Origin: a virus
Strand: one strand, 5' to 3'
DNA: 64,000 nucleotides
Virus record (IMG/VR): IMGVR_UViG_3300045988_100160
Coordinates: 1-64,000 of that record
Positions 11,715 to 63,638 of the stretch are shown in pieces. The notes under the pieces were generated by a model that did no database searches, was not told where the DNA came from, and saw nothing but the letters and a program-made list of their open reading frames with translations. Position 1 is the stretch's first letter. Each line of letters begins with the position of its first letter. The position numbers were made by a program, and so were the translations under genes.

Positions 11715-12131
11715 CTAGTCACAAGTTCTAACACCAATAAACTCAATTAAGTTTTCCCAATTGTGTGACTCGTTGCTATTAATGGTAACATAAGTGATGT
11801 CAAATTTGCTGTCGTATAAATCAATAGTACAGCCCTCTAAAGACTTGAATAAGTGTAAATGTTTCTCAGCGGTCGGTAATGCTTTGCGATATAGTTCAAA
11901 GATTTTAAACTCATAGGCTTCACTTAATGCATTAATACTGCTTTCTACATCAACTGTATGTCTGTGGGAATAATATTTATCGACAGGCTTTAATGGTCTA
12001 CTATCGTGAACTTCAAAAATATCACGGCTTGGATTGTAAACAATACATTCTGCCCCATGTACATAGTTTAGAAATACGACTGGTCTACCAAATACATCTT
12101 CACATAGCTCGCCTGCTACAAATTTACTCAT
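11715..12131 (-). CDS. hypothetical protein (138 aa)
   Basis: ORF track trimmed to ATG 12131 (AGGAGA upstream). Confidence 0.55.
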   Translation of the reverse strand: MSKFVAGELCEDVFGRPVVFLNYVHGAECIVYNPSRDIFEVHDSRPLKPVDKYYSHRHTVDVESSINALSEAYEFKIFELYRKALPTAEKHLHLFKSLEGCTIDLYDSKFDITYVTINSNESHNWENLIEFIGVRTCD

Positions 12132-12822
12132 TTGTTTTCTCCTGTGCATTAAAAATCCGTTGTTTGGCAACATCAAAATACATTGGGTCTAACTCAATAC
12201 CAATGAAATCTCGACCCAATTCAACGGCTGCAACACCTGTTGTACCAGAACCCATAAATGGGTCAATAATGGTATATTCTTTTGGCAGAATACCAATAAT
12301 GTTTTTCATTACTTGTAATGGCATCTGACATGGATGCACTGTTTTTTCTGCTGAGGTGTTCTTCACGATATTAATGTTCCACCAATCGTAAATCGGTGTG
12401 CCCTGTGAACCGTTTTCAATCAACCGTTTAATCCGTTTATCATTTGGGTTCTTATATGGTTGTAACACTTGTTTAAAGTCAGGTGTTACACCAAAGAACG
12501 CAATGTCTCGGTGTTGCTTGCGGTTGTTTGAATTATATACCCATGATACCACTTTAGTTGGTGGTCTGTCAATATCAATCGCAAGTTGATACAGTTGTTC
12601 TGGATAGTGAATAACAACAGATGGATGCGATGGATTGAACACCTGTTGCAACATCTGTCTATAATCTCCATCGCTCATTCTGTCGTGATAACCGTTGTAA
12701 TGATACCCAATGTTAAACGGAGGGTCTGACACGATGATATATGGTTTATTTTCCGCTTGCAATTGGGTTTTGATGGGTTGCAATATGGTTCGACAATCGC
12801 ATTGATGTAGCTCAATCATCAT
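12124..12822 (-). CDS. DNA methyltransferase, beta-class amino-MTase (N6-adenine or N4-cytosine)
   Basis: Motif IV is DPPF (VSDPPFNIGY). It precedes motif I, FxGxG (IDPFMGSGTTGVAA). Start trimmed to ATG 12822. Confidence 0.8.
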   Translation of the reverse strand: MMIELHQCDCRTILQPIKTQLQAENKPYIIVSDPPFNIGYHYNGYHDRMSDGDYRQMLQQVFNPSHPSVVIHYPEQLYQLAIDIDRPPTKVVSWVYNSNNRKQHRDIAFFGVTPDFKQVLQPYKNPNDKRIKRLIENGSQGTPIYDWWNINIVKNTSAEKTVHPCQMPLQVMKNIIGILPKEYTIIDPFMGSGTTGVAAVELGRDFIGIELDPMYFDVAKQRIFNAQEKTNE

Positions 12823-13210
12823 AGTCTTCCTCGAATAACATTTTTGCAATTTCTTCATCATAACTAAAGCCAAGTAGCCTTAAGATGTCGTCTTTGTCTT
12901 TTTCAGTAAAGTCTCTATGACCGTTTAGTTTGAGAGACAAATTTGTGAGACTAATTCCTAATAGGGATGCAACTTTACCGACACCCAAATTACGGTCTTT
13001 AAACATTCCTCGCAACATTGTGTGTCGTTCTTGGTATCGTGTTCCAATGTCTACTTTGAGTCGTGCAAGGTATGTTTTGACATCTTCAATATCTTTAAAA
13101 GTGTCATCTTCTAATACATTTTGCAACTTTGACAGCAACACCGATGTTTCTTCAAACTTCTTGTAATCTTCTTCGATTACAACTCCATTAATTCGTACAT
13201 GTGTTTTCAT
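12812..13210 (-). CDS. helix-turn-helix DNA-binding protein (XRE-like C-terminal HTH)
   Basis: ORF track trimmed to ATG 13210 (GGAGGA upstream). HTH-like segment LGVGKVASLLGISLTNLSLKLNG. Confidence 0.5.
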   Translation of the reverse strand: MKTHVRINGVVIEEDYKKFEETSVLLSKLQNVLEDDTFKDIEDVKTYLARLKVDIGTRYQERHTMLRGMFKDRNLGVGKVASLLGISLTNLSLKLNGHRDFTEKDKDDILRLLGFSYDEEIAKMLFEEDYDD

Positions 13211-13228
13211 ATATTCCTCCAATAGTTT

Positions 13229-13247
13229 GGGGCGAACGAGTCGCCCC
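13229..13247 (-). terminator. GC-rich stem-loop just after the adhesin gene (no U-tract)
   Basis: GGGGCGA-acgag-TCGCCCC, a 7-bp stem starting 9 nt after the stop at 13256. The missing T-run makes terminator function uncertain. Confidence 0.35.
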
Positions 13248-13255
13248 ATCTTATA

Positions 13256-14551
13256 TTACTTACTTAATAAATTTTCCAACATTTCAACACGTTCTTTTAA
13301 CTGTTGTAATTCATCTCGTTTAACATTTGTTGTTTTACCAACCTTAAAGTTTACAGATGCATTAGTTACAGAAGAAGAACCAAAAGACTGTCCAACGTAA
13401 AACATTACATTTTCATTCGGAGCGTAGAACGCACCCAATGCACCAGCGTTTGCATTTTTGTAATGTCCAAAGCCTGCACTAATAGAGAACTTATTATGTG
13501 CATCGAAACCATTCCAATGTAATGCTCCTAAAGCAGATACAGATGCAATAGCTGCATTGGTGCCACGTTCTAATTGGTTTACTTTATTGGTAATATCACC
13601 CAACATTTGTTGGCTTGAGTGCTCCAATGTGGTAATTCGGTTTTCATGGTTCATAGACACCTGTTTCAACGCTGAAATATCGCTTGTATGAGCGTTTTGA
13701 ACACGCTCTAGTGTATTTGTTCGTGCACCTAAATTTGTAATCGCTTGGTGGTTATCATTAATTAATGCCATTCCAGTACCAATGTCTGCCGCATTTTGAC
13801 GGATGCGATTATCAAATGTACTTACCGTTGTGCCAAGATTATAAATCTTGTTGCCGTTATTTGTAATTTCATCAATGGCTGCATACAACTGAGAACCATT
13901 GACTGCATCTAAGGAATCTGTGGTAATACGACCAGCAGACACATTTTGTAATTGTCGGTTGTAATTGTGGATTGCACTATAGGTGGAAGATTGTGTAGCA
14001 CCAAATGACACACTGGAGTTTGGACTGTCACCTGCGAACACATGAGTCGTGCCATTGATGTCCATTTGACTAAACGCAACAGGGTCAGATGTTTGAGAGT
14101 TTGTGCCAATTGCCACAGAGTTCTGTACTGGGGCACTTGCGTTGTTGCCAACAACCACAGCATCAATACCACGGACAACAGAGTGAGTACCAATGACAAT
14201 TGAACCTTGGTTGTCAACCGTGTTATTTGCACCGATTACAGTTTGTTCTTGGTGATTGCCAATGTAATTATTATAGCCAATTACAGAGGATTGATTCGCA
14301 GATGTTGTACCATTGCCACCACCTAAGATGATATTATCGTTGCCATTCACAGTATTGTCACGACCCAATACAATCGTATTAGTACCATTCACAACTGTGT
14401 TTGCACCGATTGCAACACTATTATAACCTGTTGCTATAGGGTCAACCGCAGATGGTTCTAAAGAGCCAATCGCAACTGGGTTGGCGGACACACCCATAGT
14501 TGCCATTGCTAATACTGCGGAAATAATCATAGTTTTTGTTTTGTTTTTCAT
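13256..14551 (-). CDS. YadA-type trimeric autotransporter adhesin (431 aa) with a post-anchor coiled-coil tail
   Basis: Signal peptide MKNKTKTMIISAVLAMATMGVSA. Head repeats NSVAIGANTVVNGTNTIVLGRDNTVNG. Neck motif RQLQNVSAGRITTDSLDAVNGSQLY. Stalk heptads. C-terminal beta-barrel anchor AAIASVSALGAL...SISAGFGHYKNANAGALGAFY...ASVNFKV. A further 27 coiled-coil residues follow the anchor. Confidence 0.85.
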   Translation of the reverse strand: MKNKTKTMIISAVLAMATMGVSANPVAIGSLEPSAVDPIATGYNSVAIGANTVVNGTNTIVLGRDNTVNGNDNIILGGGNGTTSANQSSVIGYNNYIGNHQEQTVIGANNTVDNQGSIVIGTHSVVRGIDAVVVGNNASAPVQNSVAIGTNSQTSDPVAFSQMDINGTTHVFAGDSPNSSVSFGATQSSTYSAIHNYNRQLQNVSAGRITTDSLDAVNGSQLYAAIDEITNNGNKIYNLGTTVSTFDNRIRQNAADIGTGMALINDNHQAITNLGARTNTLERVQNAHTSDISALKQVSMNHENRITTLEHSSQQMLGDITNKVNQLERGTNAAIASVSALGALHWNGFDAHNKFSISAGFGHYKNANAGALGAFYAPNENVMFYVGQSFGSSSVTNASVNFKVGKTTNVKRDELQQLKERVEMLENLLSK

Positions 14552-14572
14552 TAGGTTTCTCCTGTTGTTTCA

Positions 14573-14830
14573 TTACAAGGTTTTGTTTAATTTCTGTAGA
14601 TAATCCAATAAGTCTTGCTTGGATGTTTTCTTGATTTGATACATATCCGTTGTTACCCAATCGGAACTACAGATGCATTTAGCACCCAAGGACTTCACAC
14701 GCTTATGCCACTGGTCTGTACACAAGTACATCACGCCTTTTTTCATTCGTAGACATTGTGTCTGCGGCCAGTTGTGTCTGCGGATGCCCTTACCGTTTTC
14801 CATTAATTCGTATGCTTCGTGGAACCGCAT
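14573..14830 (-). CDS. DUF2829-like small protein (Tad2-family candidate)
   Basis: N-terminus MRFHEAYELMENGKGIRRHNW resembles the M.F.EAL..L..GK.V.R..W pattern I recall for DUF2829. A later SSDW resembles the family's C-terminal DW motif. Confidence 0.4.
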   Translation of the reverse strand: MRFHEAYELMENGKGIRRHNWPQTQCLRMKKGVMYLCTDQWHKRVKSLGAKCICSSDWVTTDMYQIKKTSKQDLLDYLQKLNKTL

Positions 14831-15003
14831 TTACAACACTTCTCCTTTCTTGGGAATAAACATAAAATAACCACGCTTAAGAACATTGCCCCAAGCCATT
14901 CTTGGTTATTGAATACAAATGTTTGAATAAATGAACCACCCATCAGCAATAAACATGAGATGTCAATCATTCGTCTAATATCAAGTATTAATTGTTTGTC
15001 CAT
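14803..15003 (-). CDS. small two-helix membrane protein (66 aa)
   Basis: ORF track. AGGAAG upstream. Overlaps both neighbours. Confidence 0.4.
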   Translation of the reverse strand: MDKQLILDIRRMIDISCLLLMGGSFIQTFVFNNQEWLGAMFLSVVILCLFPRKEKCCKCGSTKHTN

Positions 15004-15313
15004 TTTCTTCCTGACCTTTCTTTAATTCTTCTCGACCAATCTTTTGTAAAAATTTCCATGACTTGAACATTGTCTTATAGTCAAGATTGATATATGTTCT
15101 ATTCTTTGGGTGCTTTGGACACGCCAAGTATATCCAATGTTCATTCGCTGACCTTAAATGTTGAAGTATTGGTATTGGCTTGGTTTTACATTTGTAACAA
15201 CCATCTGTTGTCTGACATCGGTCTAACACATCGTCAAACCCATCGCCATAGTTAATGAAATACTCTCGTTTTTTCGGCAGTTTGCGACCACCACCAAATC
15301 CATTAGATGCCAT
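14981..15313 (-). CDS. hypothetical Cys-containing protein (110 aa)
   Basis: ORF track. First gene after the promoter at 15336..15364. Confidence 0.55.
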   Translation of the reverse strand: MASNGFGGGRKLPKKREYFINYGDGFDDVLDRCQTTDGCYKCKTKPIPILQHLRSANEHWIYLACPKHPKNRTYINLDYKTMFKSWKFLQKIGREELKKGQEENGQTINT

Positions 15314-15335: not shown

Positions 15336-15364
15336 ATAATATCATATAACTATGCTTATGTCAA
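15336..15364 (-). promoter_or_regulatory. sigma-70 promoter TTGACA-17-TATTAT
   Basis: rc of 15359..15364 is TTGACA and rc of 15336..15341 is TATTAT. Confidence 0.6.
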
Positions 15365-15400: not shown

Positions 15401-15430
15401 AATAAAAAAGAGACCAACTATGTGGTCTCC
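15401..15430 (-). terminator. rho-independent terminator
   Basis: GAGACCA/TGGTCTC stem (15410..15416 and 15423..15429), then TTTTTTATT on the minus strand. Confidence 0.65.
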
Positions 15431-15470
15431 TGCGTTTTATTTGTTTGTGTCGTCTGCTAATTTGGCTTCA

Positions 15471-22220: not shown

Positions 22221-22306
22221 TGGTGCCGTTGATAGGATTCGAACCTATGAAGCTATAAGCGACAGATTTACAGTCTGTTGTCTTTATCCATCTTGACTAC
22301 AACGAC
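22221..22306 (-). tRNA. tRNA-Tyr (GTA), class II with long variable arm, CCA encoded
   Basis: Acceptor GTCGTTG/CAACGGC, anticodon loop CTGTAAA, T arm AGGTTCGAATCCT, 86 nt. Confidence 0.8.
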
Positions 22307-22310
22307 ATGC

Positions 22311-22400
22311 TGGAGGAAAGTGTGGGATTTGAACCCACGGAACATTTCTGTTCAACAGTTTTCAAGACTGTCGCATTAAACCAGACTCTGCCAACTTTCC
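22311..22400 (-). tRNA. tRNA-Ser (TGA), CCA encoded
   Basis: Acceptor GGAAAGT/ACTTTCC, anticodon loop CTTGAAA, long variable arm, T arm GTGGGTTCAAATCCCAC, 90 nt. Confidence 0.85.
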
Positions 22401-22403
22401 ATG

Positions 22404-22478
22404 TGGCTCTTGGGATAGGACTCGAACCTATAACTCTCTGGTTAACAGCCAGATGCTCTACCATTGAACTACCCAAGA
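22404..22478 (-). tRNA. tRNA-Asn (GTT), CCA encoded
   Basis: Acceptor TCTTGGG/CCCAAGA, anticodon stem TCTGG/CCAGA with loop CTGTTAA, T arm TAGGTTCGAGTCCTA, 75 nt. Confidence 0.85.
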
Positions 22479-22641
22479 ATAAATACAACACCACTATATA
22501 CTATCGGATTTGCACTCGATATTTCCGCCCAAAAGGACTTTGTTTTACTCTTAAACTAAGTATGTAGCTGTTGCGTGGCATACATGGTAAAACATTCCAT
22601 GGCTACGTTCTACCCTTAACGGCAATGCATGAATACCGTTT

Positions 22642-22731
22642 TGGAGGATGGTACAGGATTTGAACCTGTGGTTGTTTTGCAACAACATTTCTTTAGCAAA
22701 GAAACTCAATAAGCCACTCTGACAACCATCC
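22642..22731 (-). tRNA. tRNA-Ser (GCT), CCA encoded
   Basis: Acceptor GGATGGT/ACCATCC, anticodon stem TTTCT/AGAAA with loop TTGCTAA, long variable arm, T arm CAGGTTCAAATCCTG, 90 nt. Confidence 0.85.
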
Positions 22732-24661: not shown

Positions 24662-24930
24662 TAGTCCTCCGATAACGTAATCACGGTATTGGATTTCTTA
24701 TGATATTCATCGACATAATACTCATTGGTATTGCCATTAAATGTCACTTCCCAGTATGTATGGTCGTAATCATCATGTGTTGACATAACCAATGCTTTAT
24801 GGTTTCGCAATGTTTTTGAGAACCAAACAATGTTTAGAGACTCAGATACCTCATCAACTTTATTGTCTTCGACATTCATGGTAAGCAATACGGCTTCGAT
24901 ACAGTTATCAATAAATTTATTCATTACCAT
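24661..24930 (-). CDS. hypothetical protein (89 aa)
   Basis: ORF track 24661..25050 trimmed to ATG 24930 (AGGAGG upstream). TAATG coupling to the helicase gene. Confidence 0.55.
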   Translation of the reverse strand: MVMNKFIDNCIEAVLLTMNVEDNKVDEVSESLNIVWFSKTLRNHKALVMSTHDDYDHTYWEVTFNGNTNEYYVDEYHKKSNTVITLSED

Positions 24931-25816
24931 GTAACCTCCTGTGGTGTTCAATAATATTCTTCCCAAGTTCATATATAATCGGAATAGACACGGAATTACC
25001 AGCTTGTTTATACAATTGTGCGTTCGATTGTATCTTTGCACAGGTATCAAACTGTTGGTCTGTAAATCCTTGTAATCGCCAGAATTCTCTAGGGGTCAAC
25101 TTGCGTATTACATTAGGATTGCGACTTAATAATATCTTTGGTTCAATACCACCGCCCTTGACACACGTCAAAGTTGGGGATAACCCATGTGGTGAATATA
25201 TGCGACCTCGTTGTGGATTGCCAACAAAAGAAGTCGTATTGATTATGTTTCCGACTTGAACAATAGATTGTTCGCTTTGGTTTGGTCTGTATAAAATGTC
25301 TTCGGTACATCCGTTTCCAAGATGTCCGATAATGTACACCCTTTCACGGTTTTGTGGTAGTCCAAAGTCTTTTGTGTTATACACACGCCATGCGATACTG
25401 TACCCTGCTTTGTCCATTTCAGACAAAACCGAGTAAAATCCACATCCGTTGTCAATTGACAAGAGGTTTTTAACATTCTCAATAAGCAACCATTGGGGTT
25501 TATGTTTTGTTTCATGTAATAGCCTCGTAATCTGATAAAACAAACCACTTCGAGTGTTTTCCATGCCGTGTTTAAGACCAGAAATGGATACCGACTGGCA
25601 TGGAAAACCACCGCACCACAGGTCTGCATACGGCATCTCTGTACCGTTTAATGCACGAATACCTGGTGAAAACCAAAGATTATCCGTTGGGTATAACGCA
25701 CGGTATGATGCTTGTGCGTATTTGTCTTGTTCGCACCAACCAATGCACTCCATGCCAGCTTTGGTTAAGCCAGAGTGGAAACCGCCGATACCAGCGAATA
25801 AATCAATGAATTTCAT
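24917..25816 (-). CDS. DNA (cytosine-5) methyltransferase
   Basis: Motif I FAGIGGF, motif IV GGFPCQSVS, motif VI ENV (LIENVKNL), motif VIII QNRERVYI. Confidence 0.9.
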   Translation of the reverse strand: MKFIDLFAGIGGFHSGLTKAGMECIGWCEQDKYAQASYRALYPTDNLWFSPGIRALNGTEMPYADLWCGGFPCQSVSISGLKHGMENTRSGLFYQITRLLHETKHKPQWLLIENVKNLLSIDNGCGFYSVLSEMDKAGYSIAWRVYNTKDFGLPQNRERVYIIGHLGNGCTEDILYRPNQSEQSIVQVGNIINTTSFVGNPQRGRIYSPHGLSPTLTCVKGGGIEPKILLSRNPNVIRKLTPREFWRLQGFTDQQFDTCAKIQSNAQLYKQAGNSVSIPIIYELGKNIIEHHRRLHGNE

Positions 25817-33227: not shown

Positions 33228-36200
33228 ATGGCAGACAACTTTATTCACTTGCATCTGCACTCACAGTTTTCCAACTATGGGATGAAAGATGCAATTAGTT
33301 CTGTAGATGGTATCATTAAGCGTATACACGAACTTGGACAACGAGGGTTTGCACTCACAGACCACAATGGTTGTTCAGGCTTGATTGATACATATGTGCA
33401 TCTACAGAAATATAACAAGAAACATGGCACAGATTTAAAACTTGTGATGGGGTCAGAGTTATATTATACATATGATGTCCACATAAAGGACAAATCATAT
33501 AATCATATCTTGTTTCTTGCGAAAAATCAAGTCGGACTTGAGAACTTGTTCAAGTTAACAAGTGAAGCACATAAACACTATTATTACAAGTCAAGATGTG
33601 ACCTTGATATGATACGCAAGTACTCAGAGGGTTTAATCTGTACATCGGCATGCATGGGTGGATGGCTTAAGGGTGATAATCGTGAGTCGTTAATTCCGCA
33701 GTTCAAAGACATCTTTGGTGACGACTTATATTTTGAAATCCATACATATCAACATGAAGACCAAAAGCGTTTTAATGCAATGGTTGCAGAAATGGGTGCA
33801 AAATATGATGTACCATTGATTGCCGCTTGTGACTCTCATTATGTGTATGAAGAAGATTACGCTTTACATAAGGCTTTCCGTGGTCGTTCTCAAGATGACG
33901 ATGAAGACCAATACTATGGTTCAAACGACTTCTTTATCCAATCGGAAGCGCAGGTATTCGACCGTCTATATCCACAATTTGGTGTTGATATGGTTGAAGA
34001 CATGGTGAAGAATACCAATATTATTTTTGACAAATGTAATACACAAGTTGATTTCAACTTGGATGTCTATCCAAAGTATGTTAAAGATGGCGATGTAAAA
34101 CCTGTGTTTTTAGATGCGTTGAGACAGGGGTATAAACAAAAGATTTTAAATCAGGTGACCCCAGAATTTAAGAAACGTGTTGACGAACGTGTCCCACATG
34201 AGATTGATATTTTGGAGCAAGTTGGTTATATGGACTATCTGTTGATTACCAAAGATATTCTCGATGCTTGTCGTGAACGTGATATTCCAGTTGGACATGG
34301 TCGTGGTTCGGTTGGAGGATGCGAGTGTGCATATTTACTCGATATTACATCTTTGGATGCTATTACAAACAACTTGTATTTTGAACGGTTTGCAAACCCC
34401 AATCGTGTATCACCCCCAGACGTTGACAACGATTGCTCTAAGGTAAGACGAGGAGAAGTTATTCAATATCTTGAAGAAAAATACAAATATGTCTATCAAT
34501 GTCGTACATTTTCCTACATGAAAGCATCTGGAGCATTAAAAGAAGCTGCACGATGTCTAGGCGTAGACCATACTATTGCAGATGCCTATTCAAAGAAAAT
34601 CAAGGATGTATCTTTTGACGATGATGAAGATTTCCATGATAACGACCTTGAGTATGCAAAACTTGATTATATAAATGATGGTAAACATCAAGAGATGTTT
34701 GAACTCGCTAAGAAGCTGGTCGGTATTATGACTGGCTTTGGGAAACACGCATCGGCAGTCATTGTTTCAAACCAAGATATTACCAAGTATTGCTCACTAG
34801 AGATGCAAAAAAATTCTCAAACAAAAGAAGAAACCTTTGTGGCATCCACAAACTTTAAACATTTAGAGTCTATGGGTTTTCTAAAAGAGGATATTCTTGG
34901 TCTTAGAACCTTGGATGTAATCAATGATTGTGTAACGATGGCTGGTGTCAAAAACAGTCTTGACTTGGCAAAATTACCTTGGGATGATAAACCTACGTTA
35001 GACTTGCTATGTAAAGGTGATACACTTGGAGTATTCCAAATGAAATCACAAGGAATGGTAAGAACTCTTAAAAGTATTGCCCCAAAGAACTTTGTCGATT
35101 TAATCGCTGTGGTTGCCCTGTATAGACCAGCGTGTATTTTAACAGGCATGTTAGATGAGTATATTGACCGCCGTAATGGTAAGCCGTTTGAGTACTTAGA
35201 TGAACGATTAAAAGAACCATTAGGTGAAACATATGGTATCATGGTGTTCCAAGAACAAATTATGCGTGTGTGTCAGATTATCGCTGGATATTCAATGGCG
35301 GAAGCAGATACGGTAAGACGTGCGGTTGGTAAAAAAGACCACGATTTAATGCAAGAGATTACGGCAGAATTTGTTGACCGTGCGGTTGCGAATGGTACAG
35401 ATAAAGATGTGGCGAAACAAATTTTAGACATGATTATTGCAGCGGCGAGCTATGGATTTAATAAGGCTCACAGTCAATCATACGGCTACATGGCATACAT
35501 AACGGCATACCTCAAGGCACACTATCCGCTCGAATTTTATGTGGCAACTATTAACTCCGAAGATGGCAACCAAGAGAAAATCTTGCCGTACATCCAAGAG
35601 ATGCAACGCAAGGGCATCAAGATATTACCACCTGACCTACGCTACAGTGAACGTGAGTGGACAGTCGAAGATAGTTCTGTGCGTGTTGGTCTTTCGTACA
35701 TCAAAGGTATTAACAAGATTGAAAAACCACACGAATATACAATAGATGCCATCTTTAGTAAATACTCTAAGTTGCAATTACAGGGTCTAGTCGGTAGTGG
35801 TGCATTAGACTTCTTGGGTAATACACATGAACTCATGGCGTTAATTCCTGAGTATAAGTCATATGATAAAGACCGCAAGAACGCTTTGCATAAAATACAT
35901 GAGTGGCAATCTAAGTTACAACAACACGAAGACACCATGTATACAAACGATGGATTGTTCTCTGATAAAGAATTAAAGTCTTTGGATAAAAAGAAACAGA
36001 ACATCGAAAAGAAAATCCAAGAATGGACAGACAAGTATAACTCTATAATGCTCATAGAACGCCCAAATTTGAGCTCTAAGGTGCCTGTGGTATCTCTTAG
36101 GTATGAATACCTTGGGTGTACGTTTGAAGACCCTTTAAAAGCATATAACACAAATTTAGCCAATGGTCGTGACGTCAAGGCAATCATTGTGTCTGATTTT

Positions 36201-36383
36201 AAAACGAAAACAACCAAGGCTGGCAAACCTATGGCATATGTATTCGACCATGTTGGCAACAAGTATGTCATGTGGTCTAACTACTTGGTTGAGTTACAGG
36301 TCGGTACAGGATATTATATCCAAGTGCGTGGCGACACAATCACAAAGGTTAAGCCATTGGAATTAAAACAAAATAACGCTTAA
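33228..36383 (+). CDS. dnaE: DNA polymerase III alpha subunit (DnaE-type, N-terminal PHP domain)
   Basis: PHP motif HLHLHSQFS, GHGRGSVGG, palm aspartates PPDVDNDC, 1051 aa. AGGAGG upstream. Confidence 0.9.
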   Translation: MADNFIHLHLHSQFSNYGMKDAISSVDGIIKRIHELGQRGFALTDHNGCSGLIDTYVHLQKYNKKHGTDLKLVMGSELYYTYDVHIKDKSYNHILFLAKNQVGLENLFKLTSEAHKHYYYKSRCDLDMIRKYSEGLICTSACMGGWLKGDNRESLIPQFKDIFGDDLYFEIHTYQHEDQKRFNAMVAEMGAKYDVPLIAACDSHYVYEEDYALHKAFRGRSQDDDEDQYYGSNDFFIQSEAQVFDRLYPQFGVDMVEDMVKNTNIIFDKCNTQVDFNLDVYPKYVKDGDVKPVFLDALRQGYKQKILNQVTPEFKKRVDERVPHEIDILEQVGYMDYLLITKDILDACRERDIPVGHGRGSVGGCECAYLLDITSLDAITNNLYFERFANPNRVSPPDVDNDCSKVRRGEVIQYLEEKYKYVYQCRTFSYMKASGALKEAARCLGVDHTIADAYSKKIKDVSFDDDEDFHDNDLEYAKLDYINDGKHQEMFELAKKLVGIMTGFGKHASAVIVSNQDITKYCSLEMQKNSQTKEETFVASTNFKHLESMGFLKEDILGLRTLDVINDCVTMAGVKNSLDLAKLPWDDKPTLDLLCKGDTLGVFQMKSQGMVRTLKSIAPKNFVDLIAVVALYRPACILTGMLDEYIDRRNGKPFEYLDERLKEPLGETYGIMVFQEQIMRVCQIIAGYSMAEADTVRRAVGKKDHDLMQEITAEFVDRAVANGTDKDVAKQILDMIIAAASYGFNKAHSQSYGYMAYITAYLKAHYPLEFYVATINSEDGNQEKILPYIQEMQRKGIKILPPDLRYSEREWTVEDSSVRVGLSYIKGINKIEKPHEYTIDAIFSKYSKLQLQGLVGSGALDFLGNTHELMALIPEYKSYDKDRKNALHKIHEWQSKLQQHEDTMYTNDGLFSDKELKSLDKKKQNIEKKIQEWTDKYNSIMLIERPNLSSKVPVVSLRYEYLGCTFEDPLKAYNTNLANGRDVKAIIVSDFKTKTTKAGKPMAYVFDHVGNKYVMWSNYLVELQVGTGYYIQVRGDTITKVKPLELKQNNA

Positions 36384-37014: not shown

Positions 37015-37298
37015 CGTATCTCCTGTGTATCTTGTGCAGATGGCACAAGTGTGCCACGCTCATACTCAAGATTCTCTAAGATTGAAATTTTTTGTTGCAA
37101 TAACGCACGTTCTTGTTTCGTTACCTGTAGTTGTACTTGTGTTTCATGCAGTTCTCTCTCGGTTTCTTCCAATTGTTTCTCGTGCGTATGTATACCACTA
37201 AACAATAGATACACACACACGAATAATCCAATTAGACACACTGAGAAGACAGTACCAACTGTTTTCCATAATGGAGGTTTCTCGATGTGGAAATTCAT
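37011..37298 (-). CDS. N-terminally anchored coiled-coil membrane protein (95 aa), i-spanin-like topology
   Basis: ORF track trimmed to ATG 37298 (ATGA overlap with the amidase stop, GGGGGA upstream). TM segment VGTVFSVCLIGLFVCVYLLFSGI followed by heptads. Confidence 0.55.
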   Translation of the reverse strand: MNFHIEKPPLWKTVGTVFSVCLIGLFVCVYLLFSGIHTHEKQLEETERELHETQVQLQVTKQERALLQQKISILENLEYERGTLVPSAQDTQEIR

Positions 37299-37873
37299 AT
37301 GTTTATCCCCCATTCGTTATTAGCGATAAACCGTGCGTTACCACGCAAGTTGTCACCACCAGACCACTCTGGGTCTCCTTGGTGGAGAACCCATAAATCC
37401 CATCGTTCACACGTTGAGTCTGGGCCGTAAGTATTGTTTGGGTATGGCGTTGGGTCGTTATAACACAAGTCCATGCCGTCTTTGTTGTCGGCGGCTTCGG
37501 AGTGAGTCATAACATGCTGTATGTCCAAAGGAATACCAATTTGTACACACAATAGTGCAATTACATAAGACATTGCGTAAATTTGTGCTTCTGTTGGAGG
37601 TTCTGTGCCCATATTGTAGATGCCAGTCGCATCCCAACAACCGTTCATTACGATGCCGATTGAACGACTGTTTCGCATATATGTGTGATCACGGTGTTCT
37701 GTTAAGTCATCAACATCGGTAAACAAATTGCCGTCTTTATCAATGCAGATGTGATATTTGTCTGTGTGACTTTGGTTATAATAACCAGCACTCCAATGTA
37801 GATAAATGTGATCAATATAACCTCGTGCGTTTGTTGCCATGGTTATCAACTCGTCTTTTGTTAATTGTCTCAT
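37295..37873 (-). CDS. endolysin: N-acetylmuramoyl-L-alanine amidase (amidase_2 / PGRP type)
   Basis: Segments IYLHWSAG, HTYMRNSRSIGI and VMTHSE match the zinc-amidase pattern. ATGA coupling to the holin candidate. Confidence 0.75.
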   Translation of the reverse strand: MRQLTKDELITMATNARGYIDHIYLHWSAGYYNQSHTDKYHICIDKDGNLFTDVDDLTEHRDHTYMRNSRSIGIVMNGCWDATGIYNMGTEPPTEAQIYAMSYVIALLCVQIGIPLDIQHVMTHSEAADNKDGMDLCYNDPTPYPNNTYGPDSTCERWDLWVLHQGDPEWSGGDNLRGNARFIANNEWGINI

Positions 37874-38577: not shown

Positions 38578-39648
38578 TTATAAGCTGTCAGAGGATTCTA
38601 AAATTGTATTGTTTCTATATCTGTAGATAACGTAGTATGGAGTTTGTTTTACAAAGAATACATTAGAAGTACCAACTTGTAAAGCCTTTCCAATATAGTC
38701 TTTTGATTTGTTATCAGATGCAGATACTTGACTAAAGAACCTTTCTTCTTCTCGTCCATATCCTTCTGCCTGATAGTAAGAGAAATCTAATTTAAGATTA
38801 ACCCCATGTCCAATGCCTTTAGCAATATTTTGGAGAGATGAGCCACTATAAGGAGCCCACATTTGGCTAGTGAGTGCATCGTCTATGATTAAGGTGTCAA
38901 TATCGCTAACCTTAGTCTTAACATAATTTTTGATTTTTTGGAACTCACTTTGACCAAGCGTTGGTTGATTGTTTTTGTCTCCAATATGATTCAACTCAAC
39001 AACTTTATTGTTGTAGATTGAAACACTTACTTTATCGCTACCACCTAAGCTGAGCTCTTTTGTCTCAACAAAAGAGCCTTTATCAAATACAGCGTTTAAA
39101 TTACCAAAGGCAATATTAATATCTGAAATATGATTATCAAGATACCCAAAATATCCAGCCGTATATGAGTCTCCTGCATTAGAGCTTGAAACAGATACAT
39201 TTGCAAGTCCATCTGAATTAAATTCAACAGTTTTATTATCAATTTTTACTTTAAAGTGTGGTTCGCCACTAAGAGTAAAGTTTGGATTTCCAACTAATAA
39301 TGTTGACTGTAAAGCTATTGGTTTATAATCTGTTCGTGGCATTGGTTTGCCCCAGTTAGAAATAACTGCTGAGAGAACAGAGTCAACAGTAGAGTCGTCA
39401 CACCAGATGTTGTTCTCCAACAGTTTATTCCGTGCTTGTTCGGCTGTAGATGGTTTACCGCCTTTTAAGCTATCAAGCCACTCTTGTTCTGTACCAATGA
39501 AACCGTTGCGAACGGCAACACGATATGCATCGTCACCGTCACGACCGTCTATACCATCTCGACCCGGTTTACCCTCAAAGTTTGGGATAGCAACATTGAC
39601 CTGTATAGGGTCAACCAAAGAAATTTTTGTAATAGTATCGTCTGCCAT
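38578..39648 (-). CDS. tail fibre / receptor-binding protein with a short collagen-like G-X-Y stretch
   Basis: GKPGRDGIDGRDGDD near the N-terminus. Last structural gene. 356 aa. Confidence 0.55.
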   Translation of the reverse strand: MADDTITKISLVDPIQVNVAIPNFEGKPGRDGIDGRDGDDAYRVAVRNGFIGTEQEWLDSLKGGKPSTAEQARNKLLENNIWCDDSTVDSVLSAVISNWGKPMPRTDYKPIALQSTLLVGNPNFTLSGEPHFKVKIDNKTVEFNSDGLANVSVSSSNAGDSYTAGYFGYLDNHISDINIAFGNLNAVFDKGSFVETKELSLGGSDKVSVSIYNNKVVELNHIGDKNNQPTLGQSEFQKIKNYVKTKVSDIDTLIIDDALTSQMWAPYSGSSLQNIAKGIGHGVNLKLDFSYYQAEGYGREEERFFSQVSASDNKSKDYIGKALQVGTSNVFFVKQTPYYVIYRYRNNTILESSDSL

Positions 39649-60760: not shown

Positions 60761-61291
60761 ATGGCTAATACAACAGAACCAATCAGAAATTTATCCAAAG
60801 TCCAAGAAATGAAACAAGCACTTGGCAACGACCGAGACAAAATGTTATTCACCCTTGGTATTAACTCTGGTCTCCGCATCAGCGACCTAGTAGGGTTGAC
60901 CGTAGATGATGTTAAACCAGAGATGGAATTGTATGAACAAAAAACAGGTAAGTTTAAACGGTTCATGTTATCCAAAGAAGTGTACGCATTGTTATGCGAA
61001 TACGCAAGCCGATGCAAGCATTGGCTGTTCCCAAGTCGCTCTGGTGACGGTCATATCTCAACTGTACAAGCGTGGAGAAAAATCAAGGCTGCATCCGTGA
61101 AATGCGGTTTAGATAACATCGGTACACACTCTATGCGTAAAACCTTTGGGTATCACGCATACCGCAAGGGTGTACCAATTGCATACCTTATGCAAGTCTT
61201 TAATCACTCCTCGGAAGCAATCACAATGCGATACATTGGTATCACAACCGAGGAATTAAATACTAAAGTTTATGCCATTATGGCTTTATAA
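60761..61291 (+). CDS. tyrosine site-specific recombinase, catalytic domain only (176 aa)
   Basis: Candidate R-K-H-R-H-Y catalytic set: GLRISDL, KTGKFKRF, HSMRKTF, NHSS, MRYIG. Only about 25 residues precede the first catalytic Arg. AGGAGG upstream. Confidence 0.8.
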   Translation: MANTTEPIRNLSKVQEMKQALGNDRDKMLFTLGINSGLRISDLVGLTVDDVKPEMELYEQKTGKFKRFMLSKEVYALLCEYASRCKHWLFPSRSGDGHISTVQAWRKIKAASVKCGLDNIGTHSMRKTFGYHAYRKGVPIAYLMQVFNHSSEAITMRYIGITTEELNTKVYAIMAL

Positions 61292-61576: not shown

Positions 61577-61636
61577 CAGGGCATACATAAGTTTATATCT
61601 TATGATATATTCTTATGTATGCCCTGTTTGTGTTTC
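61577..61636 (+). terminator. rho-independent terminator (15-bp stem)
   Basis: CAGGGCATACATAAG (61577..61591) pairs with CTTATGTATGCCCTG (61612..61626), then TTTGTGTTT. Confidence 0.7.
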
Positions 61637-61932
61637 TTGGGGTTGAGTCTGTATGTCTCACCTGTATGTTGTTCTGTAGGCTCATAGGTTAGGTCTCAAA
61701 CATAATATCTGACTATAAAGCAAACACGTTAGTGTTTATTGTCGAAGACAATCCTATAGGTATATACTTATGTATTCTTTAGAGTATTCTTGTTTAGATT
61801 GCTTCGCAATACTCCTTACGGAGTGTCTTTCAAGTCGGTTTCTTAAGTTTGGGGCAAAACCCTTTTTCAAAAGCTGTTTCTTAAAACTCTTTCAAGAAAA
61901 CCATCGCTTTAAAACCTATAAGTGAAAACTCT

Positions 61933-61970
61933 CTCTATATATAGGGTAAAACACTTGATTTTTGTAACAC
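61933..61970. repeat. 38-bp conserved element, copy c (CTCTATATATAGGGTAAAACACTTGATTTTTGTAACAC)
   Basis: 34/38 identical to copy b. Lies in ORF-free DNA. Confidence 0.7.
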
Positions 61971-62366
61971 ATTTTTCATAAAATTGGATAAATATTTTAT
62001 TTTACAAGCTAAAATTTACCCCTCAAAAATGCCACTCCGCCCAGTAAACATCTGCGTTTTGAGACTTGAAAAAATTTTTTAGCTTTTATGAGTAAAAAAT
62101 GCCACATAAGTCTTAAATCGGTAAAATCCGATACATGATTTTTAACTCACGCCACACTAGGTTGGTGTCACTACACTAGGCTTACGACAGTATAATTCTT
62201 GGGTTGGACACAATTTGACCCACGTGGGATAAAATCGAACGAATGTACGTTGGAAAACACAACCATAGTATTATGACGAGTTTTCGCCAACGCCATCCTA
62301 GGGTCGTGATTTTTGGTGGAAAATATTTTGGCTTCGGCTGCAAGTTAGTCTGACTAAAAATAAAGC

Positions 62367-62390
62367 AATCACCATACTAGTATGGTGATT
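62367..62390. repeat. 24-bp perfect palindrome AATCACCATACT|AGTATGGTGATT
   Basis: Read directly from the sequence. The half-site CA(C/T)CATACTAG recurs at 62509..62523 and 62974..62989. Confidence 0.8.
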
Positions 62391-62953
62391 AACTATGTTG
62401 AAAAAGATTGTCTATACGATACACAATCCTAGTAGGATGCAACCCTAGTACCATGTCACAAACTTATAATAACGCTATACTAGGAAAACATATATCAGAA
62501 AACATAATCATCATACTAGGGTTTACGTTTTATAGAAATTACATAAGTTACCCTGTGTGCAACTATAAAAATTTCTACAAAAATTTTAAACGATTGTATT
62601 TTCGATAGACAACCCTAATTGGAAAATACGATTGTTCCATATGATGTTTCATATCTTAGACAATCAATAAGAACGATTGTTTTCTCGATAGTTTTTGCGA
62701 TTGCTTTCTACATATGTCATATGTTCGTATGTATGAAACCATAGATAAAACAAGGGTTTGTAGACCATTGTATGTTATGGGGTATGGAACATTTGTATGT
62801 GCGTGACAAGTTTGTTCATATGTGTTGACTGTGGTATGGTCTTTTGTATGGTCTTGGGTTTGTTATGATTATACCGCCCCCAGTTGAGAATGGTTCTCCC
62901 TTTTGGATATTGAAAATTTTCGATACGCCTAGGGGTGTCTCATTGGTTCATAT

Positions 62954-62965
62954 GAACACATGTTC
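62954..62965. promoter_or_regulatory. LexA-type box GAACACATGTTC
   Basis: Fits GAAC-N4-GTTC. Embedded in TTCATATGAACACATGTTCACATATG. Confidence 0.5.
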
Positions 62966-63110
62966 ACATATGCACCATACTAGGGTTAGTCAATCAATCG
63001 AATAGTATCAATGTAATAGAATATCCATTATCATTCATTCATTATCATTTGTATTCTCAATATGTAGATATCCTAGATAGACAAATGTCGATATATATGT
63101 TTGTACATAT

Positions 63111-63122
63111 GAACATTTGTTC
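63111..63122. promoter_or_regulatory. LexA-type box GAACATTTGTTC
   Basis: Fits GAAC-N4-GTTC. Embedded in ACATATGAACATTTGTTCATGTG. Confidence 0.5.
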
Positions 63123-63638
63123 ATGTGTCAGCTAATGGTTTACAGTTGGGTAACATATGAGCAGATACTCATGTATGCACCATATGCATTATACTCATGA
63201 TTTTTAGTAATGTTTGTTATTGGTGTTTGGCTGGTGGTGGTTACAATTGTATTTTATAAAATGTATTTTGATTGGGTATATCAATAGGGTTTGAAAATTC
63301 TGTAGTACACATCAAACCCAAGTCCCCACCCTAGTAGCCTACATACGCACCACCACACACGCACAATAGACATATACATACGTCTATACATCTGTTACAT
63401 ACATTAATTATACATATGTATAAACCAAATAAAAATACAACGGTATACATCAATCGTATATAACCGTTATATTTTGCGTTGTATGGTCTTTTGTTTTCGT
63501 TGCATATGTTTATATTCGAAAGTCTTTAAACGCACCATATAACTCAAATAACGCAATTGTATTTTCTCATTTAGGTAAACATATTGAGAATACCAGCGTA
63601 TATATGAATGGTTGTTCATATGATAGATATAAATATAA

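Follow-up and report, generated by a model that had tools for sequence, protein, structure and literature searches.

The 64,000-nucleotide stretch of viral DNA analysed here (IMG/VR record IMGVR_UViG_3300045988_100160, positions 1 to 64,000; hereafter the window) belongs to a siphovirus-type phage of ~66 kb and carries, at positions 13256-14551 of its minus strand, an open reading frame (ORF) of 431 amino acids (aa) plus stop. A sequence-only reading of the window, made without database searches, had described the product as a YadA-type trimeric autotransporter adhesin (TAA) with every module of that class, and the searches reported below bear this out. On the plus strand, ORFs that overlap the gene do not exceed 57 aa. 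The gene and its modules are as follows.

13256..14551, minus strand: adhesin gene, a complete trimeric autotransporter of 431 aa plus stop, with Pfam and PDB matches
14483..14551, minus strand: predicted signal peptide, aa 1-23 (MKNKTKTMIISAVLAMATMGVSA), recognized by hydropathy, n/h/c layout and family conservation
13958..14482, minus strand: head, aa 24-198, with beta-roll Hep_Hag repeats followed by an INGTTHVFAG...VSFG segment; PF05658
13823..13957, minus strand: neck and start of the stalk, aa 199-243 (RQLQNVSAGRITTDSLDAVNGSQLY...); PF05662
13565..13822, minus strand: coiled-coil stalk, aa 244-329, a helix in the structure model and variable in length among relatives
13346..13564, minus strand: membrane anchor, aa 330-402, with a pore helix and four beta-strands; PF03895
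13259..13345, minus strand: post-anchor tail, aa 403-431, a short linker and ~2.5 heptads, predicted to form a periplasmic coiled coil

The profile search for head, stalk and anchor proposed in the sequence-only reading gave matches above the Pfam gathering cut-offs for three models, namely PF05658 (YadA_head, formerly Hep_Hag; 37.8 bits against a cut-off of 25), PF05662 (YadA_stalk/neck; 33.8 bits against 28.4, over aa 200-243) and PF03895 (YadA_anchor; 35.7 bits against 22.7, over aa 350-402). Sequence matches in the PDB are to TAAs only, the best being CbpF of Fusobacterium nucleatum (PDB identifier 9gh4), followed by BpaC, UspA1, YadA (PDB identifier 2lme) and fragments of SadA; the YadA anchor aligns with aa 319-402 and CbpF also aligns at the anchor. 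As judged by a hydropathy scan, the signal peptide MKNKTKTMIISAVLAMATMGVSA, which is followed by NP, has a basic n-region, a hydrophobic h-region, a c-region ending in VSA and no Cys, and a Sec signal peptide is kept across the adhesin family. The neck motif RQLQNVSAGRITTDSLDAVNGSQLY is present and is invariant within the family. By these profile matches the ORF is confirmed as a complete TAA, all of its modules lying above curated thresholds.

The protein continues for 29 residues, KVGKTTNVKRDELQQLKERVEMLENLLSK, beyond F402, the end of the Pfam anchor match, in close agreement with the 27 post-barrel coiled-coil residues counted earlier. Hydrophobic residues recur in this tail at the 3-4-3-4 spacing of heptads (L415, L418, V422, L425 and L429). 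The classical proteobacterial ending, in which the barrel with its terminal aromatic beta-signal closes the protein, is not seen in the window adhesin, and the tail instead falls within the definition of a short periplasmic domain (more than 10 and fewer than 100 residues past the barrel, mainly coiled coil). An AlphaFold model of the monomer has strands over aa 39-148, consistent with a beta-roll (predicted local distance difference test, pLDDT, of 70-80), and an unbroken helix over aa 219-346 (pLDDT up to 90); aa 412-430 are also helical in a model that is otherwise poor. A Foldseek search with the monomer model against the PDB found generic beta-helices only, at a best E-value of 0.27.

The gene belongs to a large family of phage-borne homologues. 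A protein search, of the kind the sequence-only reading had proposed, recovered more than 120 homologue clusters at 70-98% identity, with lengths of 389-455 aa; the longest contigs of these clusters are of 60-73 kb and none exceeds 73 kb. For comparison of gene order, 32 related IMG/VR loci (loci are denoted here by L and a number) were fetched by way of the neighbouring exonuclease gene, of which 31 are informative, L098 being incomplete. The adhesin gene directly follows a small Tad2-like gene in 26 of the 31, and the order Tad2-like gene, adhesin, downstream gene is fixed in the adhesin-bearing relatives. Full-length copies differ in length through indels in the stalk. A different head, built of GNGV repeats, is joined to the same signal peptide, stalk, anchor and tail in L086, L088, L092, L108 and the metagenomic protein P0124; between the window adhesin and that of L086, the identity is 74% over the signal peptide, 40% over the head, 69% over neck and stalk, and 98% over anchor plus tail. 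An allele of L110 (10559-11332) has part of the head fused to the distal stalk, with signal peptide, anchor, tail and hairpin intact.

Selection on the gene was estimated as dN/dS by the pooled Nei-Gojobori method over 17 distinct alleles at a dS of ~0.6. The ratio is 0.18 for the whole gene, 0.16 for the head, 0.08 for the neck (aa 199-230), 0.39 for the stalk (aa 231-329), 0.08 for the anchor and 0.09 for the tail. The post-barrel tail is thus as constrained as the barrel itself (0.09 against 0.08). The ORF is intact in every copy examined other than that of L110, and the GC content of the gene is 39.8% against 38.0% for the window. The combination of presence/absence and head swaps with low dN/dS marks the gene as an accessory cassette that is nonetheless kept by selection.

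The adhesin is read as the fourth gene of a putative transcription unit, in which orf110, a small membrane ORF and the Tad2-like gene precede it. The flanking features are as follows.

15408..15431, minus strand: terminator-like hairpin with a U-run, 9-bp stem and TTTTATTATA tail, ending the preceding unit
15336..15364, minus strand: putative sigma70-type promoter, TTGACA-17-TGnTATTAT, 11/12 with extended -10, a consensus match only
14981..15313, minus strand: orf110, Cys-rich, first gene of the unit, with no family match and syntenic in all relatives
14803..15003, minus strand: 66-aa ORF with hydrophobic stretches, with homologues upstream of the Tad2-like gene in L093, L094, L097 and L086
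14573..14830, minus strand: Tad2-like or DUF2829-like gene, 85 aa, matching PF11195 at an E-value of 5e-5 and 24.2 bits, just below the cut-off of 25
14559..14562, minus strand: ribosome-binding site GGAG, 7 nt before the adhesin ATG
13228..13248, minus strand: GC-rich hairpin with an 8-bp stem and six GC pairs, starting 7 nt past the adhesin stop
12812..13209, minus strand: downstream helix-turn-helix (HTH)-like gene, 132 aa, with weak HTH_31 and CI-like matches

The surroundings are those described in the sequence-only reading: small non-structural genes adjoin the adhesin, its DUF2829-like neighbour is recovered by the PF11195 match, just under the cut-off, and the GC-rich stem-loop lies at 13228-13248, where a U-run is lacking. 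The Tad2-like gene occupies the same position in all relatives, with 38-94% identity, and its product may be an anti-Thoeris sponge; the 66-aa ORF is probably a small membrane protein, judging from its hydrophobic stretches. The upstream terminator is kept in L084-L091 and L093. The close relatives L084-L092 share the promoter, at ~52 nt upstream of orf110, and L093 has a variant of it. Only 21 nt, containing the ribosome-binding site, separate the stop of the Tad2-like gene from the adhesin ATG, so that the adhesin appears to have no promoter of its own, the nearest promoter-like site lying three genes upstream. Early transcription by the host polymerase from 15336-15364 is plausible. An Rfam scan of the 12-16 kb region found nothing relevant.

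As no U-run follows the 13228-13248 hairpin on the coding strand, it is not a canonical intrinsic terminator, and we infer that it acts as an attenuating terminator or a 3'-end stabiliser. A GC hairpin of 7-10 bp is present 6-9 nt 3' of the stop in every adhesin-bearing locus regardless of the next gene, and loci that lack the adhesin also lack the hairpin. The stem differs between the window and L088 by a compensatory change (GGGGCGA/TCGCCCC to GGGGCGG/CCGCCCC). The two stem forms seen among the hairpins share no alignment register. For the HTH-like gene, the start at 13209 is preferred over the mechanically called 13249 because GGAGG precedes the former and the latter falls inside the hairpin. 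This gene is present in the close group of the window and in the adhesin-less relatives and is not found in the more distant group; in loci without the adhesin it comes straight after the Tad2-like gene and so defines the right-hand border of the insertion site. A DNA methyltransferase gene of N6/N4 type (12124-12873, minus strand; PF01555) adjoins the adhesin cassette and is variably present in relatives.

The gene had also been likened to a moron, as Juhala and Hendrix use that word for lambdoid phages, and this likeness holds in part. As in the lambdoid morons, a discrete extra gene lies between conserved neighbours, is polymorphic for presence and absence (it is missing from L093-L097) and is followed by a hairpin of its own. 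Unlike them, the window adhesin has no promoter of its own and does not deviate in GC content, and it is found in most relatives, where it is under purifying selection.

The window encodes a large terminase, a portal, a 1658-aa tape-measure protein and a J-like tail protein, together with a DnaE-type polymerase, a primase, a DnaB helicase, ThyX, a dNMP kinase, two DNA methyltransferases and an amidase endolysin. A chromosomal island, the alternative the sequence-only reading had itself named, was considered and rejected, as terminase, portal and tail genes complete a full phage gene set and the relatives are contigs of 61-73 kb. Megablast of 10 kb of the window against deposited phages gave no match, tblastn of the adhesin against phages gave weak and partial matches only, and the large terminase (TerL) and DnaE are at most ~33-36% identical to proteins of isolated phages. 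These two proteins therefore give no host. A single-protein scan of 185,579 species-representative genomes found no copy of the adhesin, and so no prophage copies. Since there are no copies in these genomes, the contigs are of at most ~73 kb and the genome is autonomous in replication, the phage is more likely to be lytic, or at least not to integrate, than to be temperate.

Periplasmic extensions are present in 99.8% of the TAAs of Negativicutes, 96% of those of Synergistia, 62% of those of Fusobacteriia and 92.5% of those of Synechococcus, and are rare in Proteobacteria (bioRxiv 10.64898/2026.01.22.700529). Such a tail by itself is therefore no pointer to Veillonella, whose adhesins the earlier reading had invoked, being also frequent in Synergistia and Fusobacteriia (bioRxiv 10.64898/2026.01.22.700529). 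Similarity over the C-terminal region is more informative. In an alignment-seeded genome scan, proteobacterial matches were confined to head and neck, and the anchor plus tail (aa 320-431) matched loci of Veillonella and Megasphaera only, at 33-46% identity, two other matches being contigs of doubtfully binned metagenome-assembled genomes (MAGs). The tblastn alignments to the Veillonella and Megasphaera loci reach residues 424-430, a coiled coil of ~20 residues being too short for proof of homology. Among metagenomic relatives outside the family, the nearest have anchors sharing 61-67% identity with Megasphaera micronuciformis or 92% with a Veillonella MAG, and the wider C-terminal neighbourhood of the adhesin is that of Veillonellaceae. 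The head domains are ~34-39% identical to genome loci of Proteobacteria and Veillonella alike, so there is no sign of a recent head exchange.

Other parts of the window point the same way. The Amidase_2 endolysin (37295-37873, minus strand) has named cellular relatives that are all Negativicutes (Sporomusa, Propionispora and Thermosinus), and the GC content of the window, 38.0%, agrees with that of the Veillonella loci (36.6-40.5%) and not with that of the Megasphaera loci (44-53%). The GC content of F. nucleatum is 27%. Based on the anchor-plus-tail similarity, the endolysin relatives and GC content, the diderm Firmicute host suggested by the sequence-only reading is very probable; we consider a host among the Negativicutes highly likely and one in the genus Veillonella itself rather likely. 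The type of anchor and tail offers a practical clue to the host range of uncultured phages.

Phage-borne adhesins of this kind are not new. The sequence-only reading had regarded such adhesins as normally chromosomal and a phage copy as novel, which does not hold in view of YadA-anchor genes in at least 80 phage records and two earlier papers (PMC3728262; PMC10654107). Such adhesins are in fact annotated widely, a finding that the sequence-only reading had itself said would remove the novelty, though the phages in question are unrelated to the window and not its relatives. The product gp20 of Pantoea phage vB_PagM_AAM22, annotated as 'adhesin containing YadA_anchor domain', is encoded directly after dUTPase, and with gp20 as query we found at least 80 deposited phage records with YadA-anchor adhesins. 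These include N4-like phages, Ackermannviridae and jumbo phages of Erwinia, Salmonella and Cronobacter, and phages of Yersinia, Escherichia and Aeromonas; many of them are virulent. In 2013, yadA homologues were described in virulent Salmonella phages, with dUTPase adjoining and away from the tail genes, and further phage cases were listed, cyanophages included (PMC3728262). In 2023, PF03895 was noted in 19 N4-like genomes, with speculation on a role in virulence (PMC10654107).

Like the window adhesin, the adhesins of proteobacterial phages (for example AAM22 gp20, Erwinia vB_EamP-S6 gp046, Salmonella SKML-39 gp201, Cronobacter GAP32_424 and those of Salmonella FSL SP-058/076) have a signal peptide, a coiled-coil passenger and a PF03895 anchor in ~320-580 aa, and are encoded among small non-structural genes, off the tail module and often beside dUTPase. 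They differ in belonging to another host clade and another phage lineage and in their weak similarity to the window adhesin (28.6% over stalk and anchor). In Pantoea gp20, the only one of them scanned, the anchor model alone was matched, whereas in the window adhesin both the YadA-type head and the neck are complete. In the five TAAs of such phages that were checked, all with a signal peptide, the protein stops at the barrel in ...GW, ...QW or ...EW, whereas the window adhesin carries the 29-aa post-barrel coiled coil. Because the five proteobacterial copies end at the barrel and the window copy has a Negativicutes-style tail, phage TAAs mirror the architecture of their host clade.

Among cellular proteins, the TAAs of Veillonella parvula (Vta; PMC7549365; bioRxiv 10.64898/2026.01.22.700529) have the same order of signal peptide, head, neck, stalk, anchor and post-anchor coiled coil. 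The tail layout FK.G-linker-heptads of loci of Veillonella (L005, L069 and L025) and Megasphaera (L028) aligns with that of the window adhesin. These genera provide the nearest cellular anchors found, yet at only 33-46% identity over anchor plus tail; their tails, of ~40-50 aa, are longer than the 29 aa of the window adhesin, their anchor motif is GLHPLDF... where the latter has ALHWNGFDAHNK, and those of their reading frames that were fetched encode 434 to ~1,230 aa, compared with 431 aa. The Vta adhesins are chromosomal, whereas the window adhesin is phage-carried. CbpF of F. nucleatum (PDB identifier 9gh4), which binds the human receptor CEACAM1 (PMC12012533), is the best PDB match and resembles the window adhesin in having head repeats, neck, anchor and extra C-terminal residues in 489 aa. 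The alignment runs through aa 317-419 at low identity; CbpF is chromosomal, and there is no hint of CEACAM1 specificity in the window adhesin. The Eib and Cla TAAs of Escherichia coli are likewise borne on mobile elements and of similar size, unlike the window adhesin in that they belong to temperate prophages, are expressed in lysogens and have a proteobacterial architecture without a periplasmic tail. The eib genes are said, after Sandt and Hill, to lie on prophages.

A relative from a second contig bears on the spread of the gene. Locus L004 (CALEMV010000347.1, 2850-4085) encodes a 411-aa TAA with a head 72% and an anchor 33% identical to those of the window adhesin, the anchor being more host-like, and the gene order on this 5-kb phage-like contig is SSB, methyltransferase, dUTPase and TAA. 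Its assignment to 'Solobacterium' was rejected given that the genus is monoderm, the contig only 5 kb long and the gene content phage-like. L004 probably represents another phage lineage, placed in a monoderm MAG through faulty binning, and its TAA suggests therefore that such genes circulate among phages of this host group. No literature linking Veillonella phages with autotransporters was found. By its predicted modules, the window adhesin is a Negativicutes-type, full-headed and periplasmic-tailed form of a kind of phage adhesin that is already annotated.

We propose, at about even confidence, that the ORF encodes a functional type Vc adhesin, an accessory gene of an uncultured and abundant family of ~65-72-kb siphovirus-type phages whose host is likely Veillonella, Veillonellaceae or Negativicutes, and that it changes the adhesion of infected cells. 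The host RNA polymerase would transcribe the adhesin from 15336-15364 as the fourth non-structural gene, probably early given its place in a non-structural unit. Sec would export the protein, and BAM would insert the trimeric barrel into the outer membrane of the infected cell. The C-terminal coiled coil would remain in the periplasm and stabilise the trimer, as for the V. parvula adhesins, whose periplasmic domains are required for protein stability (bioRxiv 10.64898/2026.01.22.700529). Head and stalk would be displayed outward, making the infected cell stickier through autoaggregation, co-aggregation or biofilm retention, so that progeny would be released beside susceptible cells, and head swapping would retune the ligand. 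TAAs of V. parvula drive autoaggregation and biofilm formation (PMC7549365), and autoaggregation by TAAs is ascribed to their heads (PMC7568254). Since Veillonella TAAs aggregate, heads mediate aggregation and the phage heads are conserved yet exchangeable, an altered adhesion or aggregation of infected cells would be the most likely effect.

The head may also be coupled to the adsorption apparatus of the phage, head and tail-fibre types being exchanged together, a conjecture that we regard as distinctly doubtful. The tail-fibre-like protein of the window (38578-39648, minus strand; 356 aa) falls into discrete variants when compared with L121-L138. The three alternative-head phages of the close group (L086, L088 and L092) share one tail-fibre cluster, which also contains the fibre (L128) of L087, a phage with the window-type head; the sample is small and phylogenetically non-independent. 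If the coupling is true, head and virion would recognise the same surface structure or partner cells, allowing infected cells to be tethered to further susceptible hosts, or the receptor to be occupied, and phage TAAs would form a general 'infected-cell targeting' device with an anchor adapted to each envelope type.

Several observations weigh against the proposed adhesin function or the host call that goes with it. The observations do not discriminate between adhesion and shielding. The adhesin is absent from five relatives (L093 and L094-L097), in which the Tad2-like gene abuts the HTH-like gene, and the copy of L110 is a 257-aa protein without a neck; because of these five relatives and the internally deleted copy, the gene must be dispensable. 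The promoter is absent at the corresponding position in most of the more distant relatives, a group in which this intergenic region is mostly lacking. In the monomer model, for which the pLDDT averages 57.6, the barrel is not modelled, its pLDDT being ~30. For the host, the closest isolated relative is only ~36% identical (TerL and DnaE), and in a tetranucleotide comparison the Veillonella loci are the closest cellular ones by raw distance, with Pasteurellaceae near and a noisy ranking after correction for composition.

The main rival is superinfection exclusion or receptor shielding, in which an early-displayed fibre masks or binds the phage's own or a competitor's receptor and so spares progeny from adsorbing to infected cells and debris. 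We consider it unlikely, though well ahead of the other alternatives. The T5 Llp and lambdoid Cor proteins exclude superinfection by other means. The accessory, conflict-related neighbourhood, with a putative counter-defence Tad2-like gene and DNA methyltransferases, would suit exclusion, as would the Erwinia phage S6 copy, which lies beside a lipoprotein and a membrane protein. The fibre cluster shared by all three alternative-head phages of the close group is also suggestive, although the link is imperfect because L128, from a phage with a window-type head, falls in the same cluster of a small, non-independent sample. Against this explanation, no phage-borne TAA is known to exclude phages, and simple shielding has no obvious need for a conserved beta-roll head (dN/dS 0.16). 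A conversion factor that helps the bacterium in lysogeny, pseudolysogeny or a carrier state through adhesion to tissue or partners, or through serum resistance in the manner of Eib, is less probable still. It would agree with the tyrosine recombinase of 176 aa (60761-61291, plus strand), with the HTH/CI-like ORF just downstream, for which matches are weak, and with the origin of the phages in human-associated metagenomes, including the 7000000xxx contigs, which we take to be assemblies of the Human Microbiome Project. A precedent for such a benefit is provided by the TAAs EibG and Cla, which give serum resistance and chain-like adhesion (PMC13534694). The absence of copies from the 185,579 genomes argues against conversion, as does the fact that homologue-bearing contigs are all of at most 73 kb, so that an integrated copy has never been seen. 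The phage's own DnaE, primase, helicase, nucleotide-metabolism genes and tRNAs would suit a virulent phage; the recombinase consists of the catalytic core alone, and a clear repressor module was not identified in the window.

Two further explanations carry very little weight. That the protein forms part of the virion, whether as a fibre or for receptor binding, is very improbable. In some database records the label of a homologue reads 'tail protein' or 'receptor binding protein; phage particle associated protein' (examples are Yersinia phage fHe-Yen8-01 and Pantoea phage LIET2), and PHROG 17426, with the tail annotation 'adhesin', is weakly matched, but outer-membrane proteins commonly contaminate phage preparations. 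A signal peptide as well as a beta-barrel anchor and a periplasmic tail, all strongly conserved, would be senseless in a virion assembled in the cytoplasm. The tail genes are moreover ~24 kb away from the adhesin, which is part of a non-structural unit, and a like separation from tail genes was noted for the Salmonella phages (PMC3728262). The homologue of fHe-Yen8-01 itself (L120, 1339-2313), a phage on which no paper was found, is a TAA with a signal peptide and a terminal ...GW. The explanation we disfavour most is that of a recently captured host gene drifting without a phage function. The five relatives without the gene and the one internally deleted copy would accord with drift, but a dN/dS of 0.18 at a dS of ~0.6 over 17 distinct alleles, an intact ORF in all other copies examined and the conservation of site and hairpin do not. 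In addition, the cellular anchors found share just 33-46% identity with that of the phage, so that the phage lineage must be old.

YadA-type adhesins have been annotated in phages for more than 10 years, and this family is well suited to a study of their function. It offers more than 120 clusters in human-associated metagenomes with an intact gene under purifying selection, and natural variants are at hand in the form of loss, head swap, change of stalk length and internal deletion. For Veillonella, as the likely host genus, both genetic tools and adhesin assays are already in place. A phage tail constrained like the barrel, together with proteobacterial phage copies that lack a tail, also provides independent evolutionary support for the view, recently put forward from experiments, that TAAs of diderm Firmicutes need a periplasmic coiled coil.

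Some further features of the window lie away from the adhesin. Four tRNA genes are present at 22221-22731 (minus strand; Tyr-GTA, Ser-TGA, Asn-GTT and Ser-GCT), and the second DNA methyltransferase is encoded at 24917-25816 (minus strand). The DnaE-type polymerase of 1051 aa (33228-36383, plus strand) is the only large plus-strand gene in an otherwise minus-strand genome. The recombinase is followed by a stretch of ~2 kb (61600-63600) that is AT-rich and nearly ORF-free and may represent a genome end or an origin region.

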